Shown piece by piece: positions 6,967 through 55,306 of a stretch of 56,100 bases of DNA. The notes under the pieces were generated by a model. The model searched no databases, was not told the DNA's origin, and saw nothing but the letters and a program-made list of their open reading frames with translations. The stretch's first letter is position 1; each line of letters opens with the position of its first letter. Made by a program: the position numbers and the translations under genes. This DNA is from Rozella allomycis CSF55 (Eukaryota). The stretch spans positions 1 through 56,100 of the forward strand of contig KE560559.1 in NCBI GenBank assembly GCA_000442015.1, given 5' to 3'.

Positions 6967-9658
6967 TTATTTTTCATTTTCTTTTAAATCGCATCTAAGA
7001 CAATGATAAGGTTTTGACTGATGAGAAGATACACAATGCTGGTGATAAAAATGCTTGCAGATGAATAGAATGACATCTTCGTCAGAACATAGAATATTTT
7101 GGTGACAAATTTCACATTCATTACAACCTAAATAAATAATGTGCAACAATATACTTGAAACATGAATACCACGCCTTTGATCAAACGCAAGTCTGCGCAT
7201 TAGAGCTAGATAATCATTCAAGAAAATATTGTAGCAACCTTCTTGCAAGGAAAGCGAAATTTAGCGAGAAATGATTTCTTACTTGAAGACGATAATCGCT
7301 GAGAATTGAAAGCAAAGATTCTTTCAAATCTAAAATGTTCATCCCAGAAGGGATTTTTAAAACGACATTTTTTGCTTCTAATTTCCCGCCCAGATTGTGT
7401 AAAAGGGAGACGATAAATTCTGGTTTGTCTACCGAGTAGTTCACTAGATCTTCCCAAAGTTGATCATCTTCTTGTTCTTTGGCGAAATCTATTGCTGCCT
7501 GTGGATCTTTAATCTTTTCAATAATCAATTTCAATGCTTCCCTAAAATTCCCCATACGTCCAAGAAGGAAAATCATTTCTTCAGTTAAATCCAAAGACTT
7601 ACAAAGAGAAAAGGCCTTCTCTATTGAATAATAATTACTTGTGCGTAAAAACTGGATAATCTTTGGCCTATCTAGCTCACAATACAATTCCAATTGTAAA
7701 TCATGATATTTAAGTGCCACAGTAGAATCTTTCCAATAAATCTCATCTAAAAACTTTAAAAGACAATCTTTGTGTGTTTCTAAGCATTTAACAATTTTAT
7801 CAACCTGCATTACTGACCCTGGTCTAAAATTACTGAGAATTTTTCGTAATAATGAATAAGAAAATCTAAACCCATAGAGTTTTCAAACAAAAGTAATAAA
7901 TTTATATTATTTTCTATACAATCAAATAAATCGAATTGAAGAACAATTTTGAATACATCTGGATCCCTCAGCTTCAAATAACAAATTATTGCTTGTTCGT
8001 GCTGTCCATTAAGCGTTAACCTAAAATCAATTGAACTTATTTTTACAATTTGGCTAACGCAGTCAAAAGAATTTTATTATCTTGCTGGAATATCAAAGAT
8101 TCTTCCACTGCATTTATAAGCTCTGAAATGTTGTACAAAATGATTGGCCAAATCTTTATTGCTTCTAAAAACTCACTCTGGTTATTTTTTAAACAATCAT
8201 TCAAAATGGCTTGATAAACAGGAGGAGGCAATCTTGGATTATCCAATGGAATGTATGGCATTAACCAAAAACCATTTTGCCTATCGCAAAACTTTTTGAC
8301 CCAAATTTCCCAAAGTGCAGAATCGTCACTAAATATTACCGGGGTCATTCTAGCAGCTTCACTAAACTGACCTTACAACAGAGATGAAAGGAAAATACCT
8401 AAATCAAATGAATTTTCGAAATATTTTTCTCCTATTTGGATTAAAAGTAATCGATTGGTGTCTTTTTGTTGGTTTTGAGCTTTTATTTCAAGAATTGCTT
8501 TTTCATAAAGGTTATGTTGGCAAAGCCACTCGATGTGATCATCAAAACTTCGCGATGAACCAGAAATTATATCTCTTTCTCCAATAACATAAAATAATTC
8601 CCCTGATTGTAGAAATTCCATTTGATATCGAAAATTGGTTTGTTTGTAACTTGGTAGTAACAATACCTCATTTGAAATCTCATCTCCTTCAAAGTCCATT
8701 AGAATTATTTCTGGTCTTTGAATGTTTTCTTCAGGGGCAATCGACAAAATGCAAATCTTGCTCTGAAACAAACCCAAACCGTATGATTCAAAATCCCCGT
8801 GGAAACTTTTAGTAATTCGTACAATATTTTTCATTTTATTACTAAAATACTTGATTACTTTGATGAAACAAATTTGAATGTTATTCCCGTCGGCTATTAT
8901 CAAATTTCCATCCTTGTCCCATGCAATTTGACTGCATTCACTTGACTCGTCATTGATTACATTAATTCGTCCATTCGATAGATCAAACACTTTAATTTGC
9001 TTTACAAAATTTATATTTTTCTTACTTTGTCGATCCATGCGATAAAATTTTCCCTCCATTTGATCATTCTTACAGGCCCTTGACCATTGTGCAGAATCTT
9101 ATCTTTGTGGCCTAGCCAGCCTGTAATGAAAAACTTTTATCGTTACTCTTTTCATTTAAATACAAGTTTCCGTCAACCCCGCCAAACGCAAATGTCTTTG
9201 AACTAGAATAATTCGGTTCCAAAGAAATAGAAAGCAGAGGACTTCTTGAAAAATATTCATAAACATTGTTAGAATTTAAGGAATAAATGAACGCTTTTCC
9301 TGTTTTTTAAAACGTATAAATTTGTACCATCATCTCCACAAGAGGCTACGAATTCTTGTTTGCCATCAACATCGATACAATTCACTTTTGCAATATGTTT
9401 ATCAAACTTTTTTATTAGGTTCCCATCAAGGTCAAGAATTAAGATAGCTCCTCTGTCTGTCCCACACATTATGTATTTCTCAGACACTTTCAGTGACGTA
9501 AAGCTAGCAGATTTTTCATCCATCAATACTTTAAAACTTCCATCCAGTTTTTTATACTTTATTAATGGTTCATCAAAATCACCCATTTGAGATATGATGG
9601 TCTCTGGGTATTCATTTTCTATATCATGTTTGTTCGGTGAAATTGATTCTTTTTCCAT
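6967..9658 (-). CDS. VPS41: HOPS subunit Vps41 (WD40, CHCR repeat, RING-H2); at least 7 introns, one GT-CG
   Basis: EPLIKY; DDHIEWL; FLRTSNYYSIEKA; LLGRMGN; DDQLWEDL; C-terminal CxxC...CxHxYHxxC RING. Confidence 0.93.
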
Positions 9659-9702
9659 ACAATTGTTATTGTTGGCCGTTTTACGATTTCAGATTTTTCT
9701 AA

Positions 9703-11479
9703 ATGGTTTTAGAAATCATTGATAAACTTATTACAGATGATAAACATGAAAGATTATATCCTTGGTAAGCAACTTTATTCTGTTGAAAATGGCCTTGGTC
9801 CTTGTCTAAAGTTTTAGAAACTTGTAGAGATTTTCCAAGCGGAGTCACACCTGCTATTTTAGCTTCTGAACTTGATCTAAAAGTAATTAATGTTATAAAA
9901 GATGAATCAAGTGGAAAAAGAATCACAGCTCTTCCGTTGAAGATAAGCCAGTTGAATTTACTATAAGAAAGACGTCCTTTCTTCAAAATACCAAAATTTG
10001 TAAATATTTGGACTTCATAACATAAAGTAATATGGGATTTTGATGAGCAAGACCAGCAAATGCTTGTTCATCAAAGGTTTTGCGCCTTTTGGTTTGAAAA
10101 TAAGGGGTTCTTTCAAAACAAGCGTAAAATACTAATGTTTCCATCAAAATTGCTCAAAAAGAAGAATGTTAATTTGTTTTCACCATCAGAAAACTTAATA
10201 TTCCTCCTCGAGCAATTAGGCGAAATGGATACACAATGGGTACGTTTCGTCTTCAAGCCAATTGAGCTACCGTCATCCGGAAATGCAAACATTATAATCC
10301 AAATTTTGAGTAAATCTAAAGAAGAAAACGTTGACGCTCTGAGAAAGAAAAGAATCATATTTGGACTTTATAACGATAACATCATATTGACGATAAATTT
10401 CTGGAACGATGATATTAAATCCACACATCTTTTCAAGAGAAATGAAACACTTGCTATTTATTCTGCATATTGCACCCTGGATTCAAATGGATCACCGATG
10501 GTCGATGTTACACCAATGAGCACCCTTTTTAAAATCGTAGACAACATAAAAGTTGAAAAATTTGACTCTTTTAACAAAAATATGAAGTATAATCCTGAAA
10601 GAACATTTATTTCGAATATTGAAGATTCAATGTCACATCTCTACCTTTTAGGGCAAATTACCGCGATATCGCCAGACATGCCAGTCATAGAAAACAATGA
10701 AGTCATTCATCGTAGAGTCTTGAGAATAATGGACACCTCAGGTAATATTATCTCTATTGATATTTTTTAGGCCAATGTGATGTAACTGTCTGGAGAAATT
10801 TAGCAAACAAAGTTGTTAACACATGCAACGTTGGTCACCTTGTTTTCCTTAATTCTGTAGAAACCCAAAAGTCCGATAATGGGGTACTTTATATTAATGT
10901 AATAGATTCTCCCAATTCTGCCATATATAATTGTAAGGCAAGTAGATTATGACTCTATTTAGTGTCAAAACTAGACGCTTTCCTGACATCCCCAAGTTTA
11001 AATTCGATCTCAACAAAATTGTCACAAGAAATCTGTAAAGTCCAATTGGCACAGATTAAATTTAAAAGCGTTAATTTAGAGTTGTCTACTGTAATATTTC
11101 GACACGACAATTGTCCACAAATATTTCAGCGCATGGCAAATCAGGAATGTGGGTTTTGCAGAAAAAAATTCATTGTTGCAAATATGAAATCATACTTTAA
11201 CATAAATGTCACCTTCACTTTCATGGGTGATGTGCATTCTGGAATTCTGGAGGATGATCCAGCCAGGGTATACAGATTTTCATTACCAAAATAAGAAAAT
11301 TCTAGATTGTCATCCAGCAGACTTTCATTACGAAACGTTAAAGGAGAAACAAAATGTTGTAGAGGAAAAAGTACTATTTAGAGAATATTTGAGTACTTTA
11401 ATAGTAAAATTTTGAAAAAAGTTGATAAAGGTGAATCCATCGAATTTACAGTCTTTTATCATTTCAAATATAAACTAAT
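9703..11479 (+). CDS. Multi-OB-fold protein of the fission-yeast Cdc24/plant CDC24_OB family (not the Cdc42 GEF); first intron GT-TG
   Basis: PWPWSLSKVLETCRDFPSGVTPAILASEL; LVHQRF; PSENLIFLL; OB strands LYLLGQI...LRIMDTSG.CDVTVW; C-terminal HxxC...CGFC zinc motif. Confidence 0.7.
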
Positions 11480-11566
11480 AAATCATGCATAAAATACTAT
11501 AAGTTTTAAACTGTTTTTGATTGGCACGAGAATCAATTTAACTCAGCCACTACCCTTTCGATTCAC

Positions 11567-12592
11567 ATGACGAAAGACGCGACGCTGGACGTATTTTCTG
11601 CGTTTGGGGGTAGTAAGCGGATGCAATCAAGGTTCATGAATACCGCTTTGAATCAGGACGATTTTAGTAATCACTTTGACGATTTGAGCATTGGGGACCA
11701 GGCGCCTCAAATTTCATCACCGGACAAGCTTGAAACAATAACGAATACTATACGAACCTTGTCTGGAAAGAATGACATTATCGAGAAACGTCTCTTCGCC
11801 GTTGAGTTTAAGGGGTGTCAAATGGAACAATCTATGGCATCGATCGCAAATGACTCAATTTCAAATTACAAAGAACTTGCAAATACATTTAGCAACTCAA
11901 TTGAATCTATGAAGGCTGCGATATTAACAGAAATCAAGAATCAAAATGAGACAATTTCAAATGCTCTCAACGCTTGCGTACATGAATTACAATTAATTCG
12001 ACAGACTTTGGATAACAAAAAGATAATCGAGTCACGTGAAATCAAAGTTGTTGAAGAGGAATCATCAGTGGAAGGAGAAGACGAAAAGAAAAAGAGTAAT
12101 CGCAAGTTAAATAGCGAAACTGGAAGCTTTATTACAATTTACTTCGATGTCGGTGTTTACGTCCCTTATAGCGCGCTTAGAAAACAATTGAGACGCCACG
12201 GTGTTCAATCGTCCCTCATTCTCAATATGTATTACAGGAAGGGAGGAATCGTTGAAATCGTAACTTACAAGACATCTTCTGATGAATTGGAAAATGATCT
12301 TGATCGTATCTCAACTTGGAGCAGAGTAGATGATTATGACCCGGTTCTCGGATGCATGGATGCCAAAGACGTTAAAAAATCTGATCTTCAGTCAAGAGAA
12401 GTAAAATCTTTGATCTGTTCTTATTTTACTACTGTTCATGCGGCTATACTTACGTCAAACGGAAGCGAAACATTGAAGAGCTATTATAAATCTAAAGCAT
12501 TTGAGATTTGCGATGATTTCTTAAAGGGGACTTGCGTTTCTTCCTCTGGGTTGGATCTTGAAGCTCTTTGGCAATCTTCTAGCCAGAATTAA
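11567..12592 (+). CDS. Intronless coiled-coil protein with an RRM-like domain, resembling ORF1 of fungal non-LTR retrotransposons
   Basis: 341-aa ORF with an N-terminal heptad region, then FITIYF...SALRKQLRRHGV...ILNMYY...IVEIV...DDYDP; visibly CpG-richer than its neighbours. Confidence 0.6.
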   Translation: MTKDATLDVFSAFGGSKRMQSRFMNTALNQDDFSNHFDDLSIGDQAPQISSPDKLETITNTIRTLSGKNDIIEKRLFAVEFKGCQMEQSMASIANDSISNYKELANTFSNSIESMKAAILTEIKNQNETISNALNACVHELQLIRQTLDNKKIIESREIKVVEEESSVEGEDEKKKSNRKLNSETGSFITIYFDVGVYVPYSALRKQLRRHGVQSSLILNMYYRKGGIVEIVTYKTSSDELENDLDRISTWSRVDDYDPVLGCMDAKDVKKSDLQSREVKSLICSYFTTVHAAILTSNGSETLKSYYKSKAFEICDDFLKGTCVSSSGLDLEALWQSSSQN

Positions 12593-12621
12593 ATAAATGT
12601 CAATAATTACGAAATTTTCTA

Positions 12622-15341
12622 ATGAGAGAAATTAGGCAAAACGGCTTTATTCCAGCTAACAGTGATGCCTATATCCATTTTGTTTCGTTTTTATTATCAG
12701 ACGACGTGTCTAAACTGGAAAGTTTCCTCAAAATGAGGGACAGTGAGGTAGAGAAGGGTAACCTCCCATACCAACATTTCACTAAGAATTTTCCTTGTGT
12801 GGACGAGCATTTTCAGCCATTTACAGCAATATAAAAAACGTTGAATCCATCAACTCAATCTTGAATAGCTTAGAACCATTGATGTCAAATGAAGACGACA
12901 GAATCGCATGGGTATTATTTTGAAATTACGCTAAAAAGTTGTCAAAATGTATTTCTGCGCATTTACTTTTTCAAAAACAAGATCTTGTAAAATCAAAAGA
13001 AATCCTTCAGAGTGTCGACATCGTCACAACTCAATTTACTCGACATGGACTTCAATCAGCTGATATTCAGCTATATCTCTATATATTTCATTTAAGAACT
13101 AGGCTTCTTGGTACTCGTGATGATAAAACGATTAGACTAGGGGAACTTTTAAATAATGATATTGAGTTCTATTCTGAATGCTATGATTGGATGGTGTCAC
13201 ATTTTAAGATTTCAGCTGACATTCCCGAGCGGGTCCAAACAGAACATATTCTTTGGAGCATTTCTGCAAGCTCTAGTTTTCAAAAAATTAAAGACTATCA
13301 CAAGGCTTTACTAATTCTTCATCGGGCATTAATGAATGGAATCAACAAGAAAGAAGAAACTATAACTCTTTTGAATGAATATGTCAAGTTATTGGAAAGG
13401 CATATTAGAAAAAGAGAATACCGAGAATTAATTTCTTCACAATATGAAACAGCGTATACATAATAGATTTTAATCACTTAAGTGAGGACTATCAGTACGT
13501 GCCATCCAAACCAGAAGAAGATATAATTCTATGTTTATTTCATTTAGAAAAGCTTTTTGACGATCAATTTGCGAAAAATGATGAAACAAAAGGATATGTT
13601 AATAAGCGTTTTGCTGAATTGAGTTTTCACATTGCAAAGTGTGGATGCACCGCCACCCTGTGCTTTGTAAAAAGTTATAATCAGTTGAATTAGGTGAATA
13701 GATTTATATTTTTTCGTAGAATTGGTAACAATACAATTTAAAGTTTTAAAGGCACTGCATCAATATATAAAAAATTGTTCCTATCATTGATAGGATTTGA
13801 ATGTTATCGTGAAGCCAGTTTAGCACTTGACGAATATCTGACGTTGTCGCCAATGAACATGACAGACCCATTTGTTTGTCTCTTGGGCGTTCGATTACAT
13901 TTAATAATCAATAATGACGTAATGTACAATAATTTGAAAAATGAAAGGCTAAAAAGGCATTAGATTTGGCCTTATTGGCAAGAAAAGTATTAAGCGATCC
14001 TGATTTGGAAGGGCAATGTCATTATTTGTTAGGCTTGTGCTATGGAGAGTTGGCTAGACAAAGTAAGATTAATTAACTTCTTTAACAGCAATTGGCGTTG
14101 AAAAAGAAAGAAATCGCAATCAGAGTCTCCAAAACTTATCAAATGCAGTTGAGTTGGATCCTACCAATGATAAATTTTTATACGCTCTAGCTTTTGCAAC
14201 GGCTGAAAGTAGGGACATTGAAAAATCGTTATTATTTTTGAGAAAAAGCATAAAGTTGAATAATTCTTCACCGAATAAATGGCATTTGCTTATACTTTTA
14301 AAATCTTGTTCGAGAGATTTTCAAAGCTGTTTAAAATTGTGCGATCTTGTTTTGAAAGAAAGTGCTCAGGAAGAATTACTAAGGTACATTTAAAAATGTT
14401 ATAAAATAGTGTCTTGTTTAGTAAGGCAATAATTTTGTCAGACATGAATAAATTTGACGAGGCATTGAAATGTTGCCATCTGATTTTTGGTCTTTGGGCT
14501 TCTGTTACTAACAAAGTAAGCTTTAAGGATCATGTGGAGATTCTTGGCGCCAATTCTTTGTAAATTTCTATTTCGCATTTCATAGGGACAAACGAAAGTC
14601 TTCTGGCAGCATCTTTTTCGATTCTTTGGAAAAAGAAACATCCGTATCTATTTGCGAAGGCTCAATGCATGTAAAGGATTGGATTTCATGTTATCCTAAA
14701 AGCTTCAAGTCGTTCAAACGAGAATTAGAGAGGAATCTTAAAACTGAATATTACACTTCAAAATTACATCAAGATAGACAATTTTATAATTTATTTGGAT
14801 TCGGGACAACTAATTCATTTGGAGACTATAAGAGGCACCGCTCCGGACTTTCACCGGCTGACTTTCTTGCCATGGTGTGGCGCCAAGTTTCCACCCTCTT
14901 TATTAAACAAGGCCTATACACTGAAGCGCTATCAGCTGCCAAAGAAGCGAATAATTTAAATGAACTCTGCCCCGCCAACCTTGCAATACTAGGCACGTGT
15001 TATTCATTTCAAGGGGACATTGACAAAGCTCAATTGTATTTTGTCAGAGCTCTTGCAATATCGTCAAGTGATATTTCTGTTCTTTTAGCGTATGCTCATC
15101 ATCTCTCTCGTATGTCCAAAACACCAGAAATTGAAATTCAATTAAAGACTTACTTGGATCTTGTACTATCATTGGATCCCAATAACAATGAGGCAAAGTA
15201 AAGAAACATTTTTGATATATTAGATCATTAATTGTAAAGGCATTTCCGGATCAGTTTTCAGACTCGGAATTACTGGTTTTCATAAAGCAAGAAATTCAAA
15301 CTCCATTTTCTAATTGGAGCATTCTTCCTCCTGCAATTTAA
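12622..15341 (+). CDS. YPP1: TPR scaffold of the Ypp1/TTC7 family (PI4KIII-alpha complex); about 10 introns
   Basis: YVPSKPEEDIIL; LYALAFATAESRDIEKS...WHLLILL; C-terminal TPRs (RALAI, LDPNNNEA). Confidence 0.7.
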
Positions 15342-15488
15342 AATAAAAATACATTGAATATAGTGTGACTAAATTAATTTTAAGGTTCGTTGAATACAAC
15401 AGGGCGGATTGTGTGAATCCCCTTGATGCCATTGTCCCTTCAATTATAATTTATGGTTCTCAACAAATACATGTATGTTATTAAAACC

Positions 15489-16445: not shown

Positions 16446-16560
16446 CTACCAATATTTTTAGGGGTCAAAATGATTCATAATATTTGGTAACATCTAATTA
16501 TAGAACAAAATGTTAAAAATATTTATTAGACTTTAATTGATAAACAAAGTATGGACAACA

Positions 16561-20333: not shown

Positions 20334-23300
20334 TTATTCAATTGCTACTTTTGCTAGAATTTTATCAGAAATCATGGAAAGTTTGGAATCGATCTCAACA
20401 ACACATTCATCGTCGACGATATTTTTGATTACACCGATTTTTCCAGTTTGTTCACCAGAAAGAATTAAAGCGGATTCACCTTTGATTGGTTTTACAGGTT
20501 GAAGGGACATTGAAGAAAGATGAAAAGTTGTTTGTTCATTTACGAGTTTAAGAGAACAAGATCCAGTTAAATCAAAAGAAATAATTTGAGCTTCTTTGCC
20601 TTGGTAAAGTCCATCATTTACACGAACAATAACATTCTTCTTTACCCAATCAATTTCTATTTTTAACTTTTGTTTTGTTGATTACTTTCAGGTTCTGATT
20701 TTGAAAGTTGATTTTCTACTGGACGTCTTCTCGGGTCGTTGGCTATCGCTTCTGTTATTTGTCTACGCTAACATCACAAAGATGAATGAACCGTACTCTT
20801 GGGTCTAGATGTGAATTATCTCCAAAGATCGCAGGGGTTCTAGGTGCATCGAATGGAGTTTTTGGTGTTTTTCTTCCTGAATCCCAAGCTGGTGTTGCAG
20901 TTTCCATTGGAGTTTTTCTACCAAGATCCCAACCAGGGGTTCTACCAGGGGTTGTAGATGAAGGTGCATCCCAAAGGGTACTTCCTTTTTCAGCTGGCGT
21001 TTTTCCATCTCCCCAAGCAGATCCATCGAATGGTGTTTTGCCACCATCAAAGGGAGTTTTGCCACCCCATCCAGCTGCAGGAGTCCTTCCACCATCCCAA
21101 CCACTTCCATCAAACGGAGTCTTTCCACCATCATACGCTGGCGTCTTTCCACCCCATCCAGCAGCTGGCGTTCTACTTGAATTCCAAGCTGGCGTTTTCC
21201 CACCATCATGAATCCCAGGTGTTTGGAACCCACGTTCTCTATCATTCAATGGCCTTGCATTTCCAGATTGACTTGAACAAAATAAACAATATAATTTACT
21301 CTAATTGCATAATATCCATTCTGGGAATAGAAATTACTTTATGTTTGGAATGTAATTCAATCCTCACTTTATTATCATCCCCATCTTTAACAATCCCAAC
21401 GTAGCCTTTCCATGGTCCTTTAGTCACTTTAACTGTATTGCCTGTCAAAATATCTCGCTTTTTCACATTAACAATTGGTGGCTGAACTGGCGCAGCAAAT
21501 GTGGCTGGGTTACTTACTTGAGCCACCGTTGATAAAACATTGTTTGAACGAACAACGTGAATTCCATTGTTTTCCATAATGTCTCTTGACTGAACAAAAA
21601 TCATTTGTCGAAAAATATACAAAATTTTAACTTCTCTATTTCTGTAATCACCATCCAAAATTCTAACAGTGTCATTGACTTTAATGTGATTGTTTCTTGC
21701 ATCAAATCCATTTCCACTCTTTGCGTCTCTCAATTGAGAAATATCTTGAGCTTTAATAACCCTTGTATTGTTAGTCTGATCCACTATCGTCAAATTATCA
21801 CCCTCTGTCCTAATAATCACTCCAACATTATGGGGATCTATTTGAACAAAATCATTTATATTATATAATTGGTTATAACTAGAATTGGATGTAGAAGATG
21901 TATGAATGGCATTTCTCACATCCTTGGCCAAACATTTAATTTCCTTTTTCGAAATTTCAGAAAAGAATGTAATTGTGTTTTCTTCCACTTTAACAACCAT
22001 CCCCTTTTCAGACGCATGTTTTCCTGAAACAACTTTAATAAAATCTCCAACTTTAAAATATTTAGCCAGTTGTGACATTTTAAAGGTAATCGTCTCATTT
22101 AGATTTTGTACTGATGGCTTCACTTTAACATTCTCACCCTCAACGGACACAACAGATCCAACAAGATGCATTAAATCCCCTTCAATGACTTCAACTTGAT
22201 CGCCTTTTTCTAGTTTTGCTTGTGATACTTGGCCAAGTTCTGGAAGAACATTCAAATCCACATCTTTTTCTGACCCTGTAAATTTGGATATCTCTTCCAA
22301 TGTTGGCATAACTTTGTCACACTCAATAGCTGAAATCTTAAACTCTCTTTCTAAATAGCCATCCTTGAAGGCTTGAGACTTGAAGATAAAATATCCCCTC
22401 GATTTGGCAATCTCTGCTTTTTTATCCATCTTTAGAATTTGATCAACATCGAAGAAGCGCGCAGGTGGCCTCTTCTTCAATTTCCTCTTTCCTTCTTCAA
22501 CAACCCCGGTCGTTGGATTGTTGTAAACTTCCAATCGTGGAACTAACTTTAATCGCACAGTTTCATTTGAATCTGAAATATCAACCACCTATTTAAATCA
22601 TACATCATATATTACCTGACCCAAATCGCCAGAATATACTCCCCTCTTTACCCTGACCCATGCATTCAGTTTAACATCAACAGGTTTTCTCTTTACTGTA
22701 ACAACATCAACCATTTCTTTAATTGGGACTAATGTAATATTCTGCAAATATACATGATTAGTTTTATCAAGTGCTTTTTGAACTTGTGCTTGTCTAAACG
22801 CTTCAACATAAATATATCCTTTCAACGAATCCCTACAAAGTGCAGAATTGATTTGCAAAGCCTCCTGGGTTCCCTCCTTGTCAAAAAATTTTCTCATCAA
22901 GTTCATCACAATTTCTTTTTCTTTTCCAATCTTTTTCAAACCTTTTTATCAACTTTACTTTGCATCGAACCATCCACAATTTTGGATCGTTTACTGATGG
23001 GAGCAGAAATTGTTTAGGGACCTTGTCTTTGTCAATTGGAAATTCTCTAAAAGCACTTTGTCTACCATACAGCTGCTTCAATCTCTGTTCCTCTGCTTCA
23101 ACATCGAGCTCTTCTTGCCTCAGAAATCGTCTTTCCAAAGTCGCCCTTGAATATCTTTCCTGGGTTTCCTTCAATTCACTCTCGTCAGCAATAAAATCAT
23201 CTATCTCTTTTCCTTGATATTTTACTACCTTTCAAGAGTTCATCATCGTCATCATAATATTCGTCCTCTCCCTCACTCTCATCAACCTCGGCTTCTACAT

Positions 23301-34192: not shown

Positions 34193-35469
34193 ATGGCAAC
34201 CTTCACTGAACTCAATTTACCAGGAAATAATATTTCTATAACCAGCCATTCATGGAATAAAGAACGCAATAGTAATAGAAATGGGTAAACCTATATGTAG
34301 AAATAGCATTGTGTCCGAACAACAATGAAGTTCATATATTTGAAAAAGTAGATTCTGAGTGGACTCTAGCTACAATTTTAAAGGAGGTATTAAATCTTTT
34401 TTAAGGGGAAATAGCATGACAAATTGGTTACTGGAATCGATTGGGCACCTAACACCAATAGAATTGTGACATGCTCTCAAGACAGGAATGCATACGTATG
34501 GAATTTTGATGGAAATCAATGGAAACCTACCCTTGTACTCTTACGCATAAATAGGGCCGCGACGTGTGTCAAATGGTGCCCAAGTGAAGAAAAATTCGCT
34601 GTTGGATGTGGCGCTAGACTGATATCTGTTTGCTACTTTGAAAAGGACAATGATTGGTGGATTAGTAAACACATCAAGAAGCCAATAAGATCGACAGTTT
34701 TGTCTGTTGATTGGCATCCAGACAGTGTTTTACTAGCTGCAGGGGCATCAGATATGAAAGCGAGAGTATTTTCAGCATTAGTTAAAGATTATGACCCAAG
34801 GTATGAAATTTGTAAAATTGAAACAGCCCGTCTGCTACACCCTGGACCGAGACCTTTGCATTTGGCAGTCTTAACATTGAACTTGGTAACGAACATGGTG
34901 GATGGATTCATTCGATATCGTTTTCACCATCTGGAAATTCTTTGGCGTTTGTAGGTAAGCATTGATTGTGTGAGCAATATTATAGGTCATGATTCCACTT
35001 TAACCATTTATAATTCTAATACTAAAAAGTCTAGTATTCTTAAGACTCCATTTTTACCATATTTATGTGTATTTTGGTTATCCGAATCTAGCATAATTTG
35101 CGCGGGATTTGATTGTAGCCCTATGTTGTACGCCACAACAAATGCAGAAGATTGGTCATTCATCAGCAAAATTGATCAAAAGCAAAAGAAAGCAATGTCT
35201 TCAAACTCAGCCATGAACATGTTTAAGCAAATGGATTCCCGGGCGCAGCAGTCTGAAAGTAGCGATGCTGATTTGAACAGCGTACATCAAAACGCAATAA
35301 CGTAAATAATTAATGCATTTTATTTATTAGTTGCACTAGAGTCATTGAAAGAACACCGAGCATCGTTAAATTTTCCACGTCCGGACTAGATGGAAAAATT
35401 GTTGTTTGGGATTTCCCGATTTCTAGCTCTGAAGAATTAATTAAAAACTTATCAATCAATTCTAAATAA
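34193..35469 (+). CDS. ARC40: Arp2/3 complex subunit ARPC1; 5 introns
   Basis: [73 protein letters not shown]. Confidence 0.97.
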
Positions 35470-41906: not shown

Positions 41907-44267
41907 TTAAAGTTCTTCATGTTCATCACTATGAATGTCTTTATCGTTTAGATTTTCTTCTGTAAGTTCTTGTTCACTTTCTTCTTGTTCAACTTCAACT
42001 ATATTTTCACCCCCTTCACCTTCACCCCCTTCACCTTCACTCCCCTCACCTTCTTCCTTTTCAACCCCTTGCTTGAGTTCAACAACTGGCTCAGCATTTA
42101 GATCCATTTGAAGTGAAATTCTCATCATCTTTTCAATTCTCTTTGCAAACCCTGGTTCATCATTAATCTTATAGCCAGATCTAAGACTGGTAGTTTCGTA
42201 CAATAGATGTAACATTTGATCTACAATAGATTCATCAGAACTCAATTTATCCAACAAAGTTACAATTAATGGATGTGATGGGTTAATTTCAAATATTTTC
42301 TTTTGTTTCGCATAAAATTCATTCAATGGATTATTCTTGTACAACGCTTCTTGAATCTTTTGCATTTGTGGTGAAATTCCAAACTTTTGACTAACAAGCG
42401 CAGATGGAGATTTAACAAGCCTTGAAGAAATTACAACTTTTTCAATCTCATCTTTAAATTTCTCTTGAATCTTTTCAATCAGTGGCTTAAATTTCTCACT
42501 CAAACTTTCAATCTCTTTTTTCTCTTCTTCATCTTCATCTCCAAACTCTAATCCTTCTTTAGCTACTGAAACAAACTCAAACCCTTGAAAGCTTCTAGTA
42601 TTCTGAACTAGAAATTCATCCAAATAATCAATAAAATACAAAACTTCATATCCCCTACCAACAACCTTTTCAATCAATGGACTCTTCTTCGCTTCTTTAA
42701 TTGAATCAGCTGCTAAATAGAAAATACTTTTTTGTCCTTTTTTCATTCTTTTCACATAATCTTCAAGGGTCACCATCTTAGATTTAGATCCAGAAATTTC
42801 CTTTTCAGATTCAGAATTTTGATCTTTTTTTTCTTTTTTAAAACTTGAAGAAAATTTTATCAATTTCAACAATTTTTCTTGATAATTTTTACTCTCCATA
42901 ACACCAACTTTAATCAATGATGAATACTCCTTGTAAAATGATTCATATTTCTCTTCATCTTCATCTTTCAATCTATTCAAATAATCTAAAACTTTTTGTA
43001 TTATTTTATTCTTCATCATCTTCAATATTTTATTTTGTTGAAGTGTTTCTCTCGACACATTCAATGGCATCTCATCACAATCTACAACCCCGGTAATAAA
43101 TGTTAACCATTTTGGTAAAAATTCACCCAAATCTTCTGTAATAAAAACCCTCTTCACAAACAATTTTATATTTCTCATTTCTTCCGGCGTTGGTTGGTGA
43201 TTCTGAAATGGATTGCTCTTGGGAATAAACAACAACACTCGGAAATCAACATCCCCTTCTGCCTTGAAATGCAAATGGCCAAGCGACTCTCCTCCTTTAA
43301 ACGCCTTGTAGAAATTCTTGTATTCTTCTTCTTCAACACTCTTAGGGTCTCTCATCCAAATTGGCTTTTGATCGTTAATTCTTTCATACTCTTGAATCTT
43401 CTTTTCAATCTTTTTCTTTTCCTTTTTTTCTTCCTTTCCTTCTTCCTCTTCTGCATCTTCAATCTCGTCATCTTTTTCTTCTTCTTCCTTACCCTGGTCA
43501 TCCCCCTTTACTTCTTCTTCACTCTCTTCAGCATCAACTTGGATTGTTTTGGTGGAATAAAGATAAATTGGAAAATTAATAAACTCGGAATGCTTCTTGA
43601 TCAATTCTCTCAATTTACTATCCTCTAGAAACTCCTTGGCATCTTCCTTCATATGAAGCAGAATCATCGTTCCTCTCTCCAATGTATTTCCCCTAACATC
43701 CTTTGAAATAGAAAAGCCTTCTTCTTCTCTAGACTGCCACACATATTGCTCATCTTCATTATTCTTACTAACAACTGTAATCTCATCTGCAACTAGAAAC
43801 GCCGAATAAAATCCAACTCCAAATTGTCCAATAAAGTTCTGAGTGCTATTCAATCCATGCTTTTCTATAGTCTGGAAAAATTCAGCTGTTCCAGACTTGG
43901 CTATCGTTCCCAAATTCTCTCTCAATTGCTCTTTCGTCATTCCTATACCAGTATCTCTAATCATCAACACCCCCTTCTCTTGATCAACGGCTATCGTGAT
44001 ATTCAAATCTCTCACTCCTCCCAACGCTCCTTCATCCCTCAAACTAGCAGTTCTTATCTTTTCCAAAGCATCACTCGCATTAGATATCAACTCGCGCAAA
44101 AATATCTCCTTGCTCTTGTACAATGAATTCACTATCAATTTCATCATACGCGAAACCTCAGTTTGATACGCATGCTTTGTCGTCTCGGCTACAGGAGGCA
44201 CACTATAATCGGGAACACTCGTTCCTAAAACTAGTCCAACAAATAAAAGTATCGCTAAACACTTCAT
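41907..44267 (-). CDS. HSP90B1: Endoplasmin/Grp94 (ER Hsp90), intronless
   Basis: Signal peptide MKCLAILLFVGLVLG; NSLYKSKEIFLRELISNASDAL; IGQFGVGFYSAFLVA; PLNVSRETLQQ; C-terminal HEEL retention signal. Confidence 0.95.
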   Translation of the reverse strand: MKCLAILLFVGLVLGTSVPDYSVPPVAETTKHAYQTEVSRMMKLIVNSLYKSKEIFLRELISNASDALEKIRTASLRDEGALGGVRDLNITIAVDQEKGVLMIRDTGIGMTKEQLRENLGTIAKSGTAEFFQTIEKHGLNSTQNFIGQFGVGFYSAFLVADEITVVSKNNEDEQYVWQSREEEGFSISKDVRGNTLERGTMILLHMKEDAKEFLEDSKLRELIKKHSEFINFPIYLYSTKTIQVDAEESEEEVKGDDQGKEEEEKDDEIEDAEEEEGKEEKKEKKKIEKKIQEYERINDQKPIWMRDPKSVEEEEYKNFYKAFKGGESLGHLHFKAEGDVDFRVLLFIPKSNPFQNHQPTPEEMRNIKLFVKRVFITEDLGEFLPKWLTFITGVVDCDEMPLNVSRETLQQNKILKMMKNKIIQKVLDYLNRLKDEDEEKYESFYKEYSSLIKVGVMESKNYQEKLLKLIKFSSSFKKEKKDQNSESEKEISGSKSKMVTLEDYVKRMKKGQKSIFYLAADSIKEAKKSPLIEKVVGRGYEVLYFIDYLDEFLVQNTRSFQGFEFVSVAKEGLEFGDEDEEEKKEIESLSEKFKPLIEKIQEKFKDEIEKVVISSRLVKSPSALVSQKFGISPQMQKIQEALYKNNPLNEFYAKQKKIFEINPSHPLIVTLLDKLSSDESIVDQMLHLLYETTSLRSGYKINDEPGFAKRIEKMMRISLQMDLNAEPVVELKQGVEKEEGEGSEGEGGEGEGGENIVEVEQEESEQELTEENLNDKDIHSDEHEEL

Positions 44268-45778: not shown

Positions 45779-47515
<1,737 letters not shown>

Positions 47516-47598
47516 TTATAGAAATTTAGCAGTTCCCTAAAACAGAAATAGAATAAGATGAAATTGATTAAACATGCGCAATGTGCGCAAAAATTACT

Positions 47599-48187
47599 TT
47601 ATTCAACTAGATCAATTAATCTCTTTAATAATGCATTTGTTTGCTGAGCCTTTCAATATTTGAATTATACAATTACATCAATAGAGGAGCATTCGAAATA
47701 TTCCACTTGAAACATTTGACGCAATTGATCCAATTTTTCACGGGTTATTTTCTTTTTATTCGCTTTATCACATTTCGTTCCTACCATGATAACCTTTGCA
47801 TCTTTTGATGCTTTCAATTTTGAAATGAGACTCTTAATTGATTCAAATGTATCTTCACTTGTCAAATCAATGCACACTAAAACAACCCGAGAATCAGTAA
47901 TCTTCGTAATTCAAGTTGCAATGATTTTACGTATCGAATAGAATCATCAGAAAATACTTCGTGCCCGGGAACATCCACAAAGAATAATTCCTTTTTCAAA
48001 TCGACCAAGCTAATTTTTGTAATGCTACACCTAATGTCCTCGATATTAATGGATGAAAGCGTAATACCATGGTGTACTTATTGGATTTGGCCGCAAGTGG
48101 ATTAGCCATAGATCCTATCAAGGATGATTTTCCGCTCGCCTTCGTTCCCAAAACACATAATTTGTATCTGTCAAACGTCAGAGACAT
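47599..48187 (-). CDS. IFT27: Rab-like small GTPase, probably IFT27/RABL4; 3 introns
   Basis: GTKASGKSSL...KYTM; ELFFVDVPGHEVF; VGTKCD; YFECSS; no C-terminal prenylation Cys. Confidence 0.65.
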
Positions 48188-48217
48188 TAATAAAAGGTAA
48201 ACAAAAATTTTATTTTA

Positions 48218-48493
48218 TTAGCGCCCAACTTCACTCTTCCCTTCAACCTTTAAGTTGTTCAAGCGTTCTTTATTGCGTCTTCCTAATACTCTCATTGTAT
48301 TGGTTTTCTCAGATTCAGTCATGTTATCCCAATTTGTAATTCTACTCATAGATCCATCCTCGTTGATAACAAGCGGTCCTAACGCATCTAGTCGAATATT
48401 CGATCCCACCTCGTGGTTATTATCAACATCTGAAGGCGCTGGTAGTCCTAATAAAGTGCCAGTTTCTGAAATATTCGATTGTGTTCCTGACAT
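48218..48493 (-). CDS. Conserved small hypothetical protein
   Basis: LDALGPLVINEDGSMSRITNWDNMTESEK...RVLGRRNKER, a motif I recall from an uncharacterised fungal/protist family. Confidence 0.75.
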   Translation of the reverse strand: MSGTQSNISETGTLLGLPAPSDVDNNHEVGSNIRLDALGPLVINEDGSMSRITNWDNMTESEKTNTMRVLGRRNKERLNNLKVEGKSEVGR

Positions 48494-48547
48494 GTGGCTT
48501 TGAACTTTGTAAAGGTTAAGAAAGAAACACTATAATTGTGATGAAAT

Positions 48548-49444
48548 TTATTTTTTCTGTGGGCTTAAAATACCTTCTAGTTGAGTCTATATTAACTTTG
48601 AAAAGGAAATACCTTCAATTGCAAGTTTGTCTTTTTCAAAAAGGCGATTTCTTCAGCATGCTTTCGTTCATCCATTGCGCGGCGTTCATTTTCTCTCTTT
48701 TCAATAGCTTCGCATTTAGCCTTCAATTCTGAGACTGAATGTTCAAGATTTTTCTTTTCTTCTTCTAATTGTTTGAGCTATTTATTTTTTTATTGTGCTG
48801 ATTACTTGGCTTTCCATTTCAGATTTTCCTTGTTCTGCTTGCAGCGCTTTTCTCATTCCAAAAGCAACACTTGACTCGTAAAGGGTTTGATAAGCGGCCA
48901 GAGTCATTCTGATTTCATCGCGAACTCTTAATAAAAGTAAACCACGTTCCTGGCATGTTATAGTTACTTGACGAATTAGTTCATCTTATTTAATTGTTTT
49001 AATCTTTGTACCAAAGCATTGGGAATACAATTCTCTTCTAATCGGACAAATTCCAGTCTCTCTTGCTTGCCTCTTTTGAAGCATATGATCTAATTGTTCC
49101 CATTATGTATTAACAGTGTAATTACTTGTAAATTGATTACATCTAATCTTGTGGCTGGAGTAGAGCTAACTTGTTGAACCCAGAACTGACCATTTTCATC
49201 CCATTCCCTATTTAATTTGAAGTGTAATGTTTTACTTTGGGGGTAGAATAGAATTTAGGATATCTTCTGTGGTAGCTGTTGGTTGTTGTAAATTTTTTAG
49301 TTTTTCATCCTTTGTTGGCGACGAGGGAGGCAATTGAGACTTTTTTGGTTCTGTTTGTTTTTGTGGTAATTTAGAGTTATCTGTGGCTTTTGAAACGAGT
49401 ACGGGATTATCATATTTGATCAATGATTGACCGATATGTAACAT
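48548..49444 (-). CDS. DNALI1: Axonemal inner-arm dynein light chain p28; 5 introns, one GT-GG
   Basis: SLIKYDNPVLVS; EDILNSILPP; VSSTPATRLDV; RQARETGICPIRRELYSQCFDELIRQVT; YESSVAFGMRKAL. Confidence 0.96.
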
Positions 49445-49617
49445 TGGAAATCGATTTGTTTACAATGAAATTTCGTTACCAGATGAAATGAAAAAACTAG
49501 CGAGGGAATTTTCAAGTGAATTAATATGTATTTTTAAATGAATCAATATCTATTTTCAATTGCAATATTTATTTCAAATGAATCAATATATATATTTTCA
49601 ATTGAATCGCAAGTGAA

Positions 49618-52600
49618 TTAATATTTATTTTCAGTGCTACTTTTATATTTTATTTTCATTCTTGCTATTGATTGAGGATCAATGCTTCCACGAATGCCTA
49701 ACAAGGCTTTCCCAACAGCTTGAGTGATACCAATTGCCGGTTTAAGGACGACCACTGGAAGAGATTTTAAAACAAGTTTCAATGAAACCTTAAATGCGTA
49801 TTTTTTTAATACTTTACTGAATCAGTCTGAGGCACAGCCAAGACAATGCTGGATGCCTCTTTCATTCCTTTGGAAAGAGACTTGTAAGCTTGAATGAAGC
49901 CTTTTGAAAATAAGATAATAATTTACCTTGAAGAGCGTTTTGTGGTGGTGAAGCGAATTTACTTTGCCGCTGCAAGTCGTGGCCCGTTAGAATTCTTTCA
50001 ATTTGATCCAAAAACGTTTCAGTAGAGACAACCATTGAAGTTCCAAGTTTTAAAACTTCATTTGAAGCTGATTTTGTAAACGAAGATAACCCCTTTTTAA
50101 TAGCTTTTAATAGATCGCCGTGTTCTTTGAAGGATTCAACTGGCAAAATGATTAAATCAACGAGACCCTTGCCTATATTTATAGCTGATTTAAAAGGATA
50201 AATAGCCTGAAGAATTCCAGTGATTTCACATTTGTTAATTTCATCCATCCAAGCGTCCATTAAAGTTTCTACTAAATTTTGAATCCCATGAATGCCACTA
50301 ATTCTTAATTTGCCAAGATTAATTCCAGCATTTTCCAATCTTAACAAATTAAATAATTCTGAAAGATTTCCTTCCTTTAAGGATGCAATGTCTATTCCTT
50401 TGGGTTTATAATCAACAGTTAAAGAAATTGGACTAATTTCAACAAGATCTACAATTTATAATAAAATAAATTTAATACTAAAATAAATTCCATTTCCAGA
50501 TGATTCAGAGCTACTTGATGAATAACTGAAAAAGTTTATTAAGAATTTTAGAGTATCCTGGTCCAAATGAACAATCAAAGGGTTTATTTCACACTTTTAA
50601 TAATTAATTTGTATTTTACTTTCAAATTCTTGTCAAAATTACCAAATTCCTGAATGGTAATGTTTAACAGGGGTTGATCATGCATTTCAGAAAACAATAA
50701 AGTTTTCCATAGAGAAGAAGGGATGTTGTCTAAAATTTCCATATTTTTAATTTTGATCGATAGAATAGAATTTGGAGAATTTGTAGATTGTAGAGCCCCC
50801 AAAGAGAATGATGTTTGGTTGATGGATAATCCAAAAATATCAAAAATGACTGAGCCTAAAGAAGGATTGAATGTTTCCTTGACAGAAGAATGTTTTAGTG
50901 GAATTGCTTCAGCGGGAGAAATGAAGCAAATGTCGTCTGATTCATTTTCCATTGTTGGATTGAGGGTTGCAGTAGATTGTAATTCTTCCAACAAGACAAA
51001 ACTATTCTGCCAATCAAACCCCTGTCTTAATTCAATTTTAACATTTAAATCTTCAGCCAACAAAATCTTTAAAGGAATTTCACAAAATAGATTATCCGAA
51101 AAGTGGGATTCATTCAAATCCAAATTTAGATTTTCACTACCATTAGTGACAGAGTTTTTAATATTAGAGTTTTCAACATTATAGTCTTCTTTGCAGACTT
51201 TATTAAATGAATTTTTTAATTCCCAATCAAATTCATTAATGGAATTAACAAACCTTGTTTCGTCCAACTCTAAATTACTTAATGTTAAATCCTTTGGCTC
51301 TTCAACTTTGAAAGGTTCCAAATTATCCAACACGCCCATCAAAGGATAAGATTTACTCATTTCAATTTGTAATTTTTCATTTATTTCACCTTTATATTCA
51401 TAATTATTTATTTCTTCTTTATTTCCATCGCTATTTTTATCTTTTTTCAAAATAACTTCAGTGGCTATGGAAATCAAAGAATGTAGACTGTCGGCACAAA
51501 CCGAAATTTCCAGATTGTGATTTGAAATTTTAATCATCGATTTTTCAACAAGAAAAGACATATAATCATCTCTTGCAACTTTAATGTAACCCATTTCCTA
51601 TAAATATTACAAAATTTGTCTATTTACTTGTAGCCCATCAATGGTTGACAAACCTGAATCAGATTCAAGCAAGAATTGTTTATCATCAATGAGAAATAAA
51701 TTAAAATTTTGAAATACAATACTTTTATTACTTTTATTAATTGAAATCTTAAAGTTTTAATTGAAATAATTTACATTTGATAAATCAAAATAGAAAAGTA
51801 AATTTCCAAAACAAGAATCATATTCGATTGTAAAATCATTCAATTGTAAACGCAATGGGAATTCAAATCCAAACGATCCATTTTCAGTCAATTTATATAC
51901 AAAGTGACTGTTTGTCAATGAAATATAAAATTCATTATTTATAAATGTAAAAATTAGTCGATCTTTAGAATATCTTTGTCTCTTTGATTGAAATTGGCTT
52001 TCTCTCAACACAACTTGATTTTGCTTTTCTATAACTATCTTGGAACTCACAAATTTTAATGAATTTTCTTTCAAAGAATATCCAATAATTGAATCTTTTA
52101 AATAAACATCAAACTCATTTGTTGCAAAATGAACTATAATTTGAATTTCTGAAATTTACTATTTTGACATAGAAAGGAAAACACAACTGCAATCGAATCA
52201 ACATCAGATCCAACATCAGAAGCAACTTCAATATCAAAAGAAATATTATTTTGCATTCCTTCTATGTCGAATACTTTAAAATCAAAAAATATGTTGGGAA
52301 TGTCAATTTGTATGAAATATTTCTGTATCAATGTTAAATATTCAATACCGAATTGTTAGACAAACTTTTCAATTCTCTAATCAAATCTTCTCTAGAATTA
52401 ATTTCTCTTTTGAAATTTATTTTATTAGAATTATTTAAACTGAAACTGATAAAGGATTTGGCGCCATTTGTTGAAAATGAATTACAGAAAATTCTCTCAT
52501 CAATTGAAGCCCTCAAACTATCAAATGAAAAAACAAGCGGCAAATTCAACGAAATGCTCACATTGCCAAAAAATAATTGATATCTTTGAAATAAAATTAT

Positions 52601-53988
52601 TGAATTTACTTGTGAATGTCAAAGTCAACCAACAACTCAAAACTTGGCAAAATCAATTTAATTTCAGTGCCATTTTGATTCTCATTTGACATTTGTTTAA
52701 AACTCTTGGAAAGGTTTCCAATTCTCTCTAAAACATTTTCTGTCAAATGAAAAAATACAGAATCCAATTCAACTTTAATCAAATTATGGTCCATTACATC
52801 TCCTCGTTAAATTTATTAATCTCAATTACGAGTCGCAACAAATTGTGGAAATTTCGCATTTCTAAATTCAAGCAAGGGTGAATCATCCAAAAATACTGAA
52901 ATTTTATTTGATATAAATTCATTTAATTCTCCACACATCAAAATACAATCTTCAAATTCAAAATAAAATTCAGAAATTTTAATCTTTAACAGTTTAGATT
53001 TAACCGTCAAGTTGAGAAATGATTCAGTTCTCAAATTGTACGTTGAATTCACAAGCGAAAGATAATTTGGATCTTCTTCATACTCAATCGATTCATTGTA
53101 CAACGCTGTATGAAATGAAGCCAACGATGCTAAACTCTCTCTCATCCAAATTTCTGCTCCTCCAATTCCTTTTCTTCTTTGAAATGAATTTGTCAAATTA
53201 ATCAATTTAATGATATCATCGATTGAAGCATTAATTTGTGGATCATTAACCGTAGCGTTAACATCTACATGACCATTCAAGTGCATTCTCAAGGTGCTCC
53301 CCAAAGACTTTGCCGATAAAATAGTCTTTTCATTCAGCTTTACATTGATTTCTTTCATTTCAACATTAAATGAATTGCTAGATTTAATCCTAGTAATATT
53401 AATATGATCAATTTCCACAGAAATGGTTTGACTCTCCAACCTTATATTAATTCTCAAATTATGCAATTTTAGAAAGAGCTTATCTATTATTTGATCTATC
53501 CACTCGCTCACTGATTTAATGACATGTTCAGTTTCCATCATTTCTTCATTCTCCGATTCTTCATATTGAAATGTATAGTCAAAGAATGGATCTCTCAATA
53601 TCACATCATCTTTCTCTATAACTCTTTCTTCATCCGTCTTTGCGGTGAACAAAATATCAATATTCTTCAAACACAACGATATTGATTCCCCAGTATCGCT
53701 CCACAAACTTGTCCAAGGAATAGAAAACTCGGCTGTTTCTACACTTCCTTTTTCATACTTTAAAAACTCACTATCAGTAAACAACTAGGAAAAAGATCCA
53801 AAAAGATGTACTTTGGGGTTGATTTTCAAGCCATTCAAGTGTAATTTACCACTCGTAAGCTGCAAAGACAATTCATGTGTATCTGGAATTCCAATCAACA
53901 ATTTGCCAATAATGCGTTCAAGTAAGAATTTTATAAATTGGTTCTGCTTGAAATAAATGTAACAACATACCTGAGATGCCTTGATCAT
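49618..53988 (-). CDS. ATG2: Autophagy lipid-transfer protein Atg2; about 13 introns
   Basis: Chorein-N region (FLLERIIGKLL...SIPWTSLW); VCADSLHSL; HLDQDTLKFL; VDYKPKGID; NIGKGLVDLIILP; SKFASPP; VVVLKPAIG...LLGIRGSIDP. Confidence 0.9.
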
Positions 53989-54145
53989 GTTATATGTCAA
54001 TCAGATCCTTTGACTTGGCTAAATGAATTAAGATTTGAGACATTTACTGAACCTTAAATTCAGGAAAAATAATGGAAGTTTACCACACGACTAATTAAAA
54101 AAAAAGAAAAATGATTGAAGTTTACGACCCGGGCACAGAAAACGA

Positions 54146-54499
54146 TTAATTTTGGGTTGGTACTTTGAGAGCAATGTAATTCTTTATTGAATCGTTTAAT
54201 TCCTTTGATTCCTCAAATCCAGGCGTGTCAACAATATTCAATGCTTTTCTTTCATATGAACAAGGGTATATTGTTAAATCTGCCTCTCTCAAATTTTCAC
54301 TCAATCTCTCATATTTTTTATCTTTGGAATTTAAATCGAATAGACTATGAAGAACTTTTACGATGGTTGACTTTCCTGCACAATTGTGCCCGAACATAAG
54401 AACATTAAAAGGGCGATTACAGGCCTCATTTTTAACAGGTATAGCAACAAAAAAGTGAACCAAGCAACAAAAAATCCCTGCAAGAAGAATTTTTTTCAT
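54146..54499 (-). CDS. Signal-peptide-bearing TRAFAC GTPase fragment (G1 and G3 only); possibly truncated or a pseudogene
   Basis: MKKILLAGIFCCLVHFFVA; NVLMFGHNCAGKST; LNIVDTPGF; no G4 motif found before the ATG2 start. Confidence 0.6.
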   Translation of the reverse strand: MKKILLAGIFCCLVHFFVAIPVKNEACNRPFNVLMFGHNCAGKSTIVKVLHSLFDLNSKDKKYERLSENLREADLTIYPCSYERKALNIVDTPGFEESKELNDSIKNYIALKVPTQN

Positions 54500-54637
54500 C
54501 TTTTTGCCAGGGTATGGAATTATTGATATTAGATATTCATGAAATCATCAACTATTTTCCCATTAAGATTTTAGCATTTCTCACTTAATGAAATATCGAA
54601 TAATAAAGTATGTGCCAAAATCTTATATCGAAATTTC

Positions 54638-55306
54638 ATGCTGAAATTCGCCAATATCAACTCTGTTGCATTTTTACTTTGCGATATCCAAGAGAAATTT
54701 AGACCAGCTATATATGATTTTAATAGCGTCGTGCGTGTTGCTGATAGAATGGTATTTGTAAACGCGAAATATTTCTAGGTCAAAGCTGCTTCAATTTTAA
54801 AGCGTCCATTAATTGTTACTGAACAAGTAATTTCACATCTTTCTTTAGAACAGTATCCAAAAGGTTTAGGCTCAACAGTAAAAGAAATTGACATCAAGTC
54901 CGCAAAACTATTTTCCAAAACCAAATTCTCGATGCTCACAGATGACGTGAAGAAGGAAATAGCTAATATTAACGATATTTGCCTATTTGGCATCGAGGTA
55001 ATTATTTGCTTTATGATTAAATGTCACATGTTTGTGTTTACCAAACGGCATTTGATTTATTGAATGAGGGAAAAAATGTCTTTTTATTAGCAGATGGCAT
55101 AAGTTCCAGATATAAAGAGGAAAAATATTTGGCCTTGTCAGTAACAGAGAGACTTAAAGCAACACTAGCAATTACAACATGCAGGGGCCCAAGTAATTTC
55201 AAGCGAATGCCTTTTATTCCAATTGTTAAAGGGTTCGGACCATCCAAACTTTAAGGATATATCAAATTTAGTTAAGAGCACTGACCCCATTAAAATAAAC
55301 TCTTGA
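54638..55306 (+). CDS. Isochorismatase-domain protein (ISOC1/2-like); 4 introns, one GT-TG
   Basis: LCDIQEKFRPAI; VTEQYPKGLGST; KTKFSM; FGIESHVCVYQT; DGISSR; SECLLFQL..HPNFK. Confidence 0.93.

Follow-up and report, generated by a model that had tools for sequence, protein, structure and literature searches.

Tiny introns that appear to end in BG instead of AG in genes of Rozella allomycis

Contig KE560559.1 of Rozella allomycis CSF55, analyzed over its whole 56,100 bp (referred to here as the window), carries about 130 very short introns. Four candidate introns share the donor and the length of the others and have C, G, or T in place of the A of the terminal AG (BG acceptors, where B is any base other than A). 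They lie in a Vps41 gene (intron #1), a Cdc24-OB/RADX-like gene (intron #2), a gene for an axonemal dynein light-intermediate chain (intron #3), and an isochorismatase-domain gene (intron #4). The window has a G+C content of 34%, and the standard genetic code gives long open reading frames (ORFs) in it; a ciliate or other alternative code was rejected because the long ORFs are open under the standard one. Scans of the window for tRNAs and with Rfam gave no matches. The four introns and the exons on either side of them are as follows.

7255-7282, minus strand: intron #1, 28 nt, GTAAG...TTTCG, acceptor CG, Vps41 gene
7283-7804, minus strand: Vps41 upstream exon (Pfam TPR_Vps41, E 8.5e-46, profile to 332/333)
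6970-7254, minus strand: Vps41 last exon, linker plus RING-H2 (Pfam zf-RING_Vps41, E 2.5e-6, frame +1 relative to the upstream exon)
9765-9791, plus strand: intron #2, 27 nt, GTAAG...AAATG, acceptor TG, Cdc24-OB/RADX-like gene
9703-9764, plus strand: proposed first exon of the same gene, 21 codons from the ATG with the last codon split (from the gene model, without a Pfam match of its own)
9792-9882, plus strand: exon after #2, start of OB1 (Pfam CDC24_OB1, 32.6 bits, profile 35-63)
49100-49125, minus strand: intron #3, 26 nt, GTAAT...AATGG, acceptor GG, axonemal dynein light-intermediate chain gene
49126-49207, minus strand: dynein (p28/DNALI1-type) upstream exon (Pfam Ax_dynein_light ends at profile 38)
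49012-49099, minus strand: dynein exon after #3 (profile 39-67; the first 27 nt are intronic in the public annotation)
54998-55023, plus strand: intron #4, 26 nt, GTAAT...AAATG, acceptor TG, isochorismatase-domain gene
54854-54997, plus strand: ISOC/MAR1-like upstream exon (PDB 2b34_A residues 60-110 and 1x9g_A 68-116, ending GIE)
55024-55140, plus strand: isochorismatase exon after #4 (Pfam Isochorismatase profile 124-164; PDB 2b34_A 111-147)

A preliminary description of this DNA had singled out the four, and they read as it gave them, with GTAA donors, lengths of 28, 27, 26, and 26 nt, and the ends CG, TG, GG, and TG. The terminal G is kept in all of them and only the −2 base varies, retention of any one leads to a stop or a frameshift, and the host genes are otherwise intact, all of which it had also stated. 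The trinucleotides are UCG, AUG, UGG, and AUG, and the neighboring introns are canonical. Its further statement that nearby AGs are out of phase or would delete conserved residues held up when each site was checked, with a 75-nt in-phase alternative possible at #2. The four thus have the GTA donor and the length of the major U2-type introns of this contig and lack the AG 3′ end. U12-type introns have the donor consensus RTATCCTT and a branch site of the TCCTTAAC type and can have non-AG termini. A U12-type identity was rejected, since the donors here are GTAAGA, GTAAGC, GTAATT, and GTAATT and the four introns lack a TCCTTAAC-type branch site.

Gene models were obtained with our own dynamic-programming gene finder, written to avoid the bias of hand tracing, which combines codon log-odds (trained on the long ORFs of the window) with weight matrices for donors and acceptors and an iteratively learned length term and which handles split codons. 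Restricted to AG acceptors, it returned 124 introns, with lengths of 26 nt (32 introns), 27 nt (31), 28 nt (23), 29 nt (20), 30 nt (11), 31 nt (4), 34 nt (2), and 69 nt (1). With all 16 acceptor dinucleotides admitted and each charged the same 8 or 10 bits, the finder returned 131 introns, and the only non-AG introns among them were #2, #3, and #4. For the anatomy of the introns, one intron in an antisense false model was removed, leaving 126 AG introns of 26 to 34 nt, the 3 BG introns, and one AG intron of 69 nt. No GC-AG introns were found by the finder among the approximately 130 introns of the window, including in a run with free donors.

At intron #3, the Ax_dynein_light profile spans three consecutive exons at positions 10-38, 39-67, and 68-128 and is therefore contiguous across the GG intron. 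Removal of the 26 nt restores the residues EQLDHMLQK, which are identical in three chytrid proteins (P0051, P0063, and P0074) and present in 8/8 homologues aligned with MAFFT. The public Rozella protein from this gene (P0011, 331 aa) is without exactly these nine residues, as it uses an in-phase AG 27 nt downstream and so has a 53-nt intron; a stretch of nine codons in perfect agreement with distant relatives cannot be part of an intron. The only nearer AG, at 36 nt from the donor, is out of phase, and retention shifts the frame and gives a stop after 11 codons. Among 62 metagenome loci with both flanks, 55 have no gap, and three (L025, L042, and L053) are interrupted at the same NLQ|EQL boundary by a GT...CAG intron, indicating that the intron position is old and canonical elsewhere.

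The mis-modeled dynein locus covers 48574-49444 (minus strand). Our own model and P0011 both contain the 69-nt AG intron, by way of which a 13-nt micro-exon is joined to a downstream ORF. This intron was rejected, as the gene, after the preceding intron, ends in TQLEGILSPQKK plus a stop, identical to the C terminus of the chytrid homologues. An ORF of about 91 codons starting MSGTQ... lies downstream of the dynein gene at 48218-48504 (minus strand), after 48505-48612 (minus strand). With the dynein gene ending at TQLEGILSPQKK, this ORF is a separate unnamed gene or gene part.

Intron #1 separates the TPR/CHCR region of Vps41 from the exon for its C-terminal RING. With its 28 nt removed, the sequence DYRLQ|LSLQEGC matches the pattern D[FY]xLQ|xSLxEGC without a gap in 7/8 homologues in a MAFFT alignment, the eighth being truncated, and the last exon aligns with the C termini of four homologues (P0005, P0007, P0008, and P0009). 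The zf-RING_Vps41 match scores 27.4 bits, below its cut-off of 30.3. If the intron is retained, the frame shifts, a TGA follows after 22 codons, and the RING domain is lost. The AGs after the donor end at 41, 44, 77, 90, and 108 nt, and all are out of phase. The public protein (P0001) is identical up to ...SDYRLQ and then continues from a far AG, several hundred bases away, which gives it an unrelated end and no RING; that far exon is antisense to the neighboring gene. The mis-modeled Vps41 locus covers 6967-9658 (minus strand). A PDB search for the junction found a sole Vps41 structure, which does not span the linker, and a metagenome scan with the Vps41 exon gave 128 pattern matches, of which none was confirmed. 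The junction of #1 was accepted on the basis of homology and not of the finder.

At intron #4, residue numbering in the PDB matches is contiguous across the junction (110|111 in 2b34_A and 116|117 in 1x9g_A). Retention shifts the frame and gives a stop after 21 codons. No AG follows the donor until 71 nt, and the use of that one, which is in phase, would cost the isochorismatase fold 15 conserved residues.

Intron #2 appears to be the least certain of the four, with weaker support from its gene. Retention reads TGG TAA. A BLASTP match to the homologue P0133 starts at the second residue of the exon after #2 (E 9e-4), and the P-W that ends the proposed first exon matches a P-W in the same homologue. 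After the donor, neither the AG at 47 nt nor that at 53 nt is in phase, and the one at 63 nt is in phase but puts a TGA across the junction; the in-phase 75-nt GT-AG alternative (9765-9839) would remove residues that match the OB1 domain. The gene (about 526 codons, 9703-11478, plus strand) is fast-evolving and its exon structure is uncertain. A homologue search restricted to longer proteins gave no match, a profile-free search gave 4 matches only, and the public protein seems to be a 126-residue fragment (P0130). A second intron of this gene at 9883-9911 (plus strand) is also uncertain, the OB1 match being 35-76 with 34.1 bits when it is retained versus 35-63 with 32.6 bits when it is removed.

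Overall, removal at the exact junction restores the expected protein at #1, #3, and #4 and is suggestive at #2, so that, as judged from sequence, the observation is confirmed firmly at three sites and provisionally at one. Three public Rozella proteins from this contig (P0001, P0011, and P0130) are mis-modeled exactly at BG introns, where the public annotations impose GT-AG at the expense of conserved sequence.

The remaining introns of the contig are highly uniform. The earlier count of about 130 was reproduced by the finder, whose 126 GT-AG introns peak at 26 nt (32 introns), 27 nt (32), and 28 nt (24), with 124/126 between 26 and 31 nt and none shorter than a hard floor of 26 nt. The donor is GTA in 126/126 and has A at +4 in 87/126. 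The acceptor trinucleotides are TAG (67), AAG (40), CAG (16), and GAG (3); AAG is thus as frequent as had been described, while the same claim for GAG did not stand. There is no polypyrimidine tract, as had also been noted, since C occurs in only 6 to 19 of the 126 introns at each position from −20 to −4 and A and T are about equally common through the 3′ half. A branch-point search found internal motifs with weak enrichment and no fixed position (TTGAT in 16 introns and TTGAA in 15 versus about 5 expected).

In 123/126 introns, the AG that is used is the first to end at or past the 26-nt mark, counted from the donor. Another 89 AGs fall short of that mark, at positions 7-25, and are left unused. 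This pattern points to a hard minimum distance between donor and acceptor. The BG introns, at 26 to 28 nt, fall on the mode of the 126 AG introns; their first AGs end at 41, 47, 36, and 71 nt in #1 to #4, respectively, and none has an AG ending at 26 to 35 nt. Furthermore, each BG site is one base from a normal TAG or AAG acceptor, which suggests that A-to-B mutations at −2 were tolerated and fixed. The AG introns longer than 26 nt contain 10 BG dinucleotides that end at or beyond the 26-nt minimum, ahead of the AG demanded by the reading frame, and are passed over. AG is therefore clearly preferred where it follows, and BG behaves as a fallback. The earlier proposal that distance (about 27 nt) plus a terminal G sets the 3′ splice site stands in part: the distance is borne out by the 26-nt floor and the use of the first AG in 123/126 introns, whereas a terminal G is not sufficient, as the 10 BG dinucleotides passed over indicate.

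Several other candidates were rejected. When the donors were freed too (all 16 dinucleotides), the sole extra intron was an AA-AG "intron" at 6492-6518, which fuses two adjacent, separate genes in the same frame. These are an 827-codon membrane-protein gene (4038-6518) and a small gene (6591-6943), presumably for an Img2/L49-type mitochondrial ribosomal protein, in the region 3780-6821 (plus strand); they share one frame with one TAG between them, and this lone TAG accounts for the false call. Non-canonical candidates seen only at 4 to 6 bits (50657-50683, 55193-55220, 55204-55231, 2974-3000, 13454-13479, 13424-13452, 48042-48067, 48530-48556, and 10635-10661) were each dropped because they lie within an antisense false model or because a canonical intron displaces them. 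The finder also called as genes long antisense ORFs at 20786-21211 (plus strand, opposite Spt5), 50723-51184 (plus strand, opposite an Atg2-like gene), and 35008-35163 (minus strand, opposite Arp2/3 p41), which are most likely artefacts of codon-biased sense strands. Elsewhere in the window, an intronless gene for a GRP94-like, ER-type Hsp90 (41907-44267, minus strand) encodes the C terminus HEEL and not the usual KDEL/HDEL retention signal.

The BG share is 4/130 introns (3.1%; exact 95% interval of 0.8 to 7.6%, computed for 4 of 131). That a rate near 3% would be far above the norm, as first claimed, is supported by the transcript-curated annotation of the fungus Ganoderma lingzhi, in whose reported splice-site classes GT-GG accounts for 0.041%, GT-TG for 0.024%, and GT-CG for 0.021% (PMC11590231). 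Their sum is 0.086% (79 of about 92,107), against which the probability of at least 4 in 131 is 6e-6. The same three GT-BG types thus occur in that annotation but are about 35 times rarer than 4/130. The main non-canonical class reported there is GC-AG, at 1.85% (PMC11590231), a class with no member among the approximately 130 introns here.

The human genome has about 200,000 introns. In human U2-type introns, TG alternative 3′ splice sites have been verified experimentally in 36 genes, according to the account of Szafranski et al. (2007, PMC2374985). The likeness is that TG serves as a 3′ site of the major spliceosome; unlike the Rozella candidates, the human sites described there are alternative and not constitutive at about 3%. 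The closest likeness in detail is to Saccharomyces cerevisiae without Prp18, in which, as the preprint's account of 3′ splice site choice has it, BG, RAG, and some non-G 3′ sites are activated and the best BG sites are AUG, ACG, UGG, and UUG (Roy et al., bioRxiv 10.1101/2023.01.12.523824). As in that deletion strain, the candidates here involve the major spliceosome and a GU donor, keep the terminal G, and have C, G, or U at −2. Three of the four sites (AUG, UGG, and AUG) are on the list of best BG sites, and UCG is not; AAG, which is favored in the yeast mutant, makes up 40/126 acceptors in the Rozella contig. The activation of BG sites in yeast without Prp18 indicates that the chemistry of the spliceosome permits splicing at them. 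However, the yeast BG sites in that account are low-level alternatives seen after a fidelity factor is deleted and mRNA decay is blocked, whereas in Rozella, with its wild-type genome, conserved genes would have no other productive site. The Rozella introns also differ from those of yeast in being 26 to 31 nt long without a U tract.

Uniformly tiny introns are found in Paramecium, Stentor, and the nucleomorphs of chlorarachniophytes, all of which, to our knowledge, keep AG. The Rozella contig resembles these lineages in its very narrow length distribution with a hard minimum, which suggests that the spliceosome probably senses intron length as such. In the Rozella gene for ribosomal protein S23, the introns described are about 30 nt long and have no microsporidian motifs (PMC6349667), and the lowest fungal median intron length in a single-cell genomics study is 29 bp (PMC8042348). 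The passages on Rozella introns in these two papers do not mention non-AG acceptors. A literature search found no work joining Rozella with non-canonical splicing, nor with Prp18, Slu7, or U2AF, although supplementary tables may hold Rozella intron statistics.

We consider it likely, on the evidence of the conserved reading frames, that the four are genuine major-spliceosome introns with a BG 3′ splice site that are removed at exactly the boundaries listed above. The intron would then be a rigid unit of 26 to 31 nt defined by a GTA donor, without a polypyrimidine tract and with little internal signal beyond a weak motif. In the second catalytic step, the first acceptable site at least 26 nt from the donor would be taken, with AG preferred, and where the narrow window within reach offers no AG, a dinucleotide with a terminal G may be used as a fallback. 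In post-catalytic spliceosome structures, G(−1) pairs with G(+1) and A(−2) pairs with the branch A. Weak proofreading of the Prp18/Slu7/Prp22 type may underlie the use of BG. No spliceosome genes lie within the window.

Several points weigh against genuine BG splicing. We infer excision at BG from protein conservation only, and the sample is a single contig of about 56 kb. Intron #1 was not picked by the finder, which did not link the Vps41 RING exon unaided; its choice at 6 bits was a 27-nt in-frame variant ending in TC, which we rejected because it misses the RING. At #2, the 21-codon first exon without a family match and the in-phase 75-nt GT-AG alternative may count against a BG acceptor at that site. 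The length rule is partly circular, as the length prior of the finder was learned from its own first pass. Finally, G shows no depletion in the stretch between the 26-nt minimum and the used AG (11/67 positions; P = 0.83), and since BG sites are not depleted there, BG must be a much weaker site than AG.

The same caution applies to the DNA itself. It is unlikely that the four −2 bases are not functional sequence and reflect instead errors of the assembly consensus, or the assembled allele of heterozygous or mixed sites with AG on the other allele. The single-substitution distance of every site from TAG or AAG is in keeping with such an origin, and so is the fact that the ORFs of this contig are known from one contig only in the protein collection: an exact look-up of nine ORFs, including the read-throughs of #1 and #4, found one control ORF, from a single contig. 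However, even an error rate of 1e-3 per base predicts 0.13 substitution errors at 131 sites, and the probability of at least 4 is about 1e-5, which bears out the original argument that random errors are improbable. Random errors or null alleles should also strike G+1, T+2, and G−1 and interrupt the roughly 40 kb of coding sequence with in-frame stops, but the models are intact and all four changes are at −2. No lesion at G+1, T+2, A+3, or G−1 was found in any credible gene model of the window, and the probability that four independent hits would all fall on −2 among the five invariant intron positions is 0.0016.

If the bases are right, the BG introns might still be spliced poorly or not at all, leaving genes that are hypomorphic, regulated by retention, or, in the reduced genome of this obligate parasite, beginning to decay. 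BG is intrinsically weak in that it is skipped whenever an AG follows within the window of reach, and mutations at −2 block or slow the second step in well-studied systems. Yet it would be strange for decay to produce four independent lesions of one kind in about 37 genes and leave the affected genes otherwise sound. In the dynein gene, 9/9 residues after the GG are identical to those of chytrids and the later exons are conserved, which argues for continued translation through the junction. We therefore regard poor or absent splicing as improbable. It is very unlikely that the transcripts use the ordinary downstream AGs of the public annotation and encode shortened or altered proteins. The public models do exactly this, with the 53-nt intron of P0011 and the far AG of P0001, and #2 has its possible 75-nt in-phase GT-AG intron. 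However, such splicing would delete EQLDHMLQK from the dynein chain, remove everything in Vps41 from the linker through the RING, and take 15 residues out of the isochorismatase fold, and it would require introns of 53 to about 580 nt, in contrast to 26 to 34 nt in 126/126 credible AG introns. Furthermore, #1 has no in-phase AG within 108 nt, the far exon of P0001 runs antisense to a neighboring gene, and the sole 69-nt AG intron is false by homology.

We give about even credence to a broader reading in which the major spliceosome of Rozella allomycis, and perhaps of the Rozellomycota at large, places the 3′ splice site mainly with a ruler of about 26 to 31 nt and has largely lost proofreading of the −2 A, so that about 3% of constitutive introns genome-wide, or several hundred at the density seen here, would end in BG. 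This would make it the first known natural lineage with non-AG acceptors at the percent level and a natural counterpart of prp18 loss. It may possibly be tied to loss of or change in Prp18, Slu7, or U2AF35 on the way toward the reduced spliceosome of Microsporidia.

Few signals in eukaryotic gene expression vary as little as the terminal AG, and natural constitutive exceptions at the 3′ end amount to hundredths of a percent. Predictors that force GT-AG mis-annotate the genes described here, and comparative studies based on this proteome inherit truncated or altered proteins. If the reading is true, introns that accept any base at −2 in 3% of cases would be a natural experiment on the recognition and proofreading of the 3′ splice site in the second step. 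They would also bear on how intron shortening shifts recognition from sequence to distance and on the simplification of the spliceosome near the base of Microsporidia.

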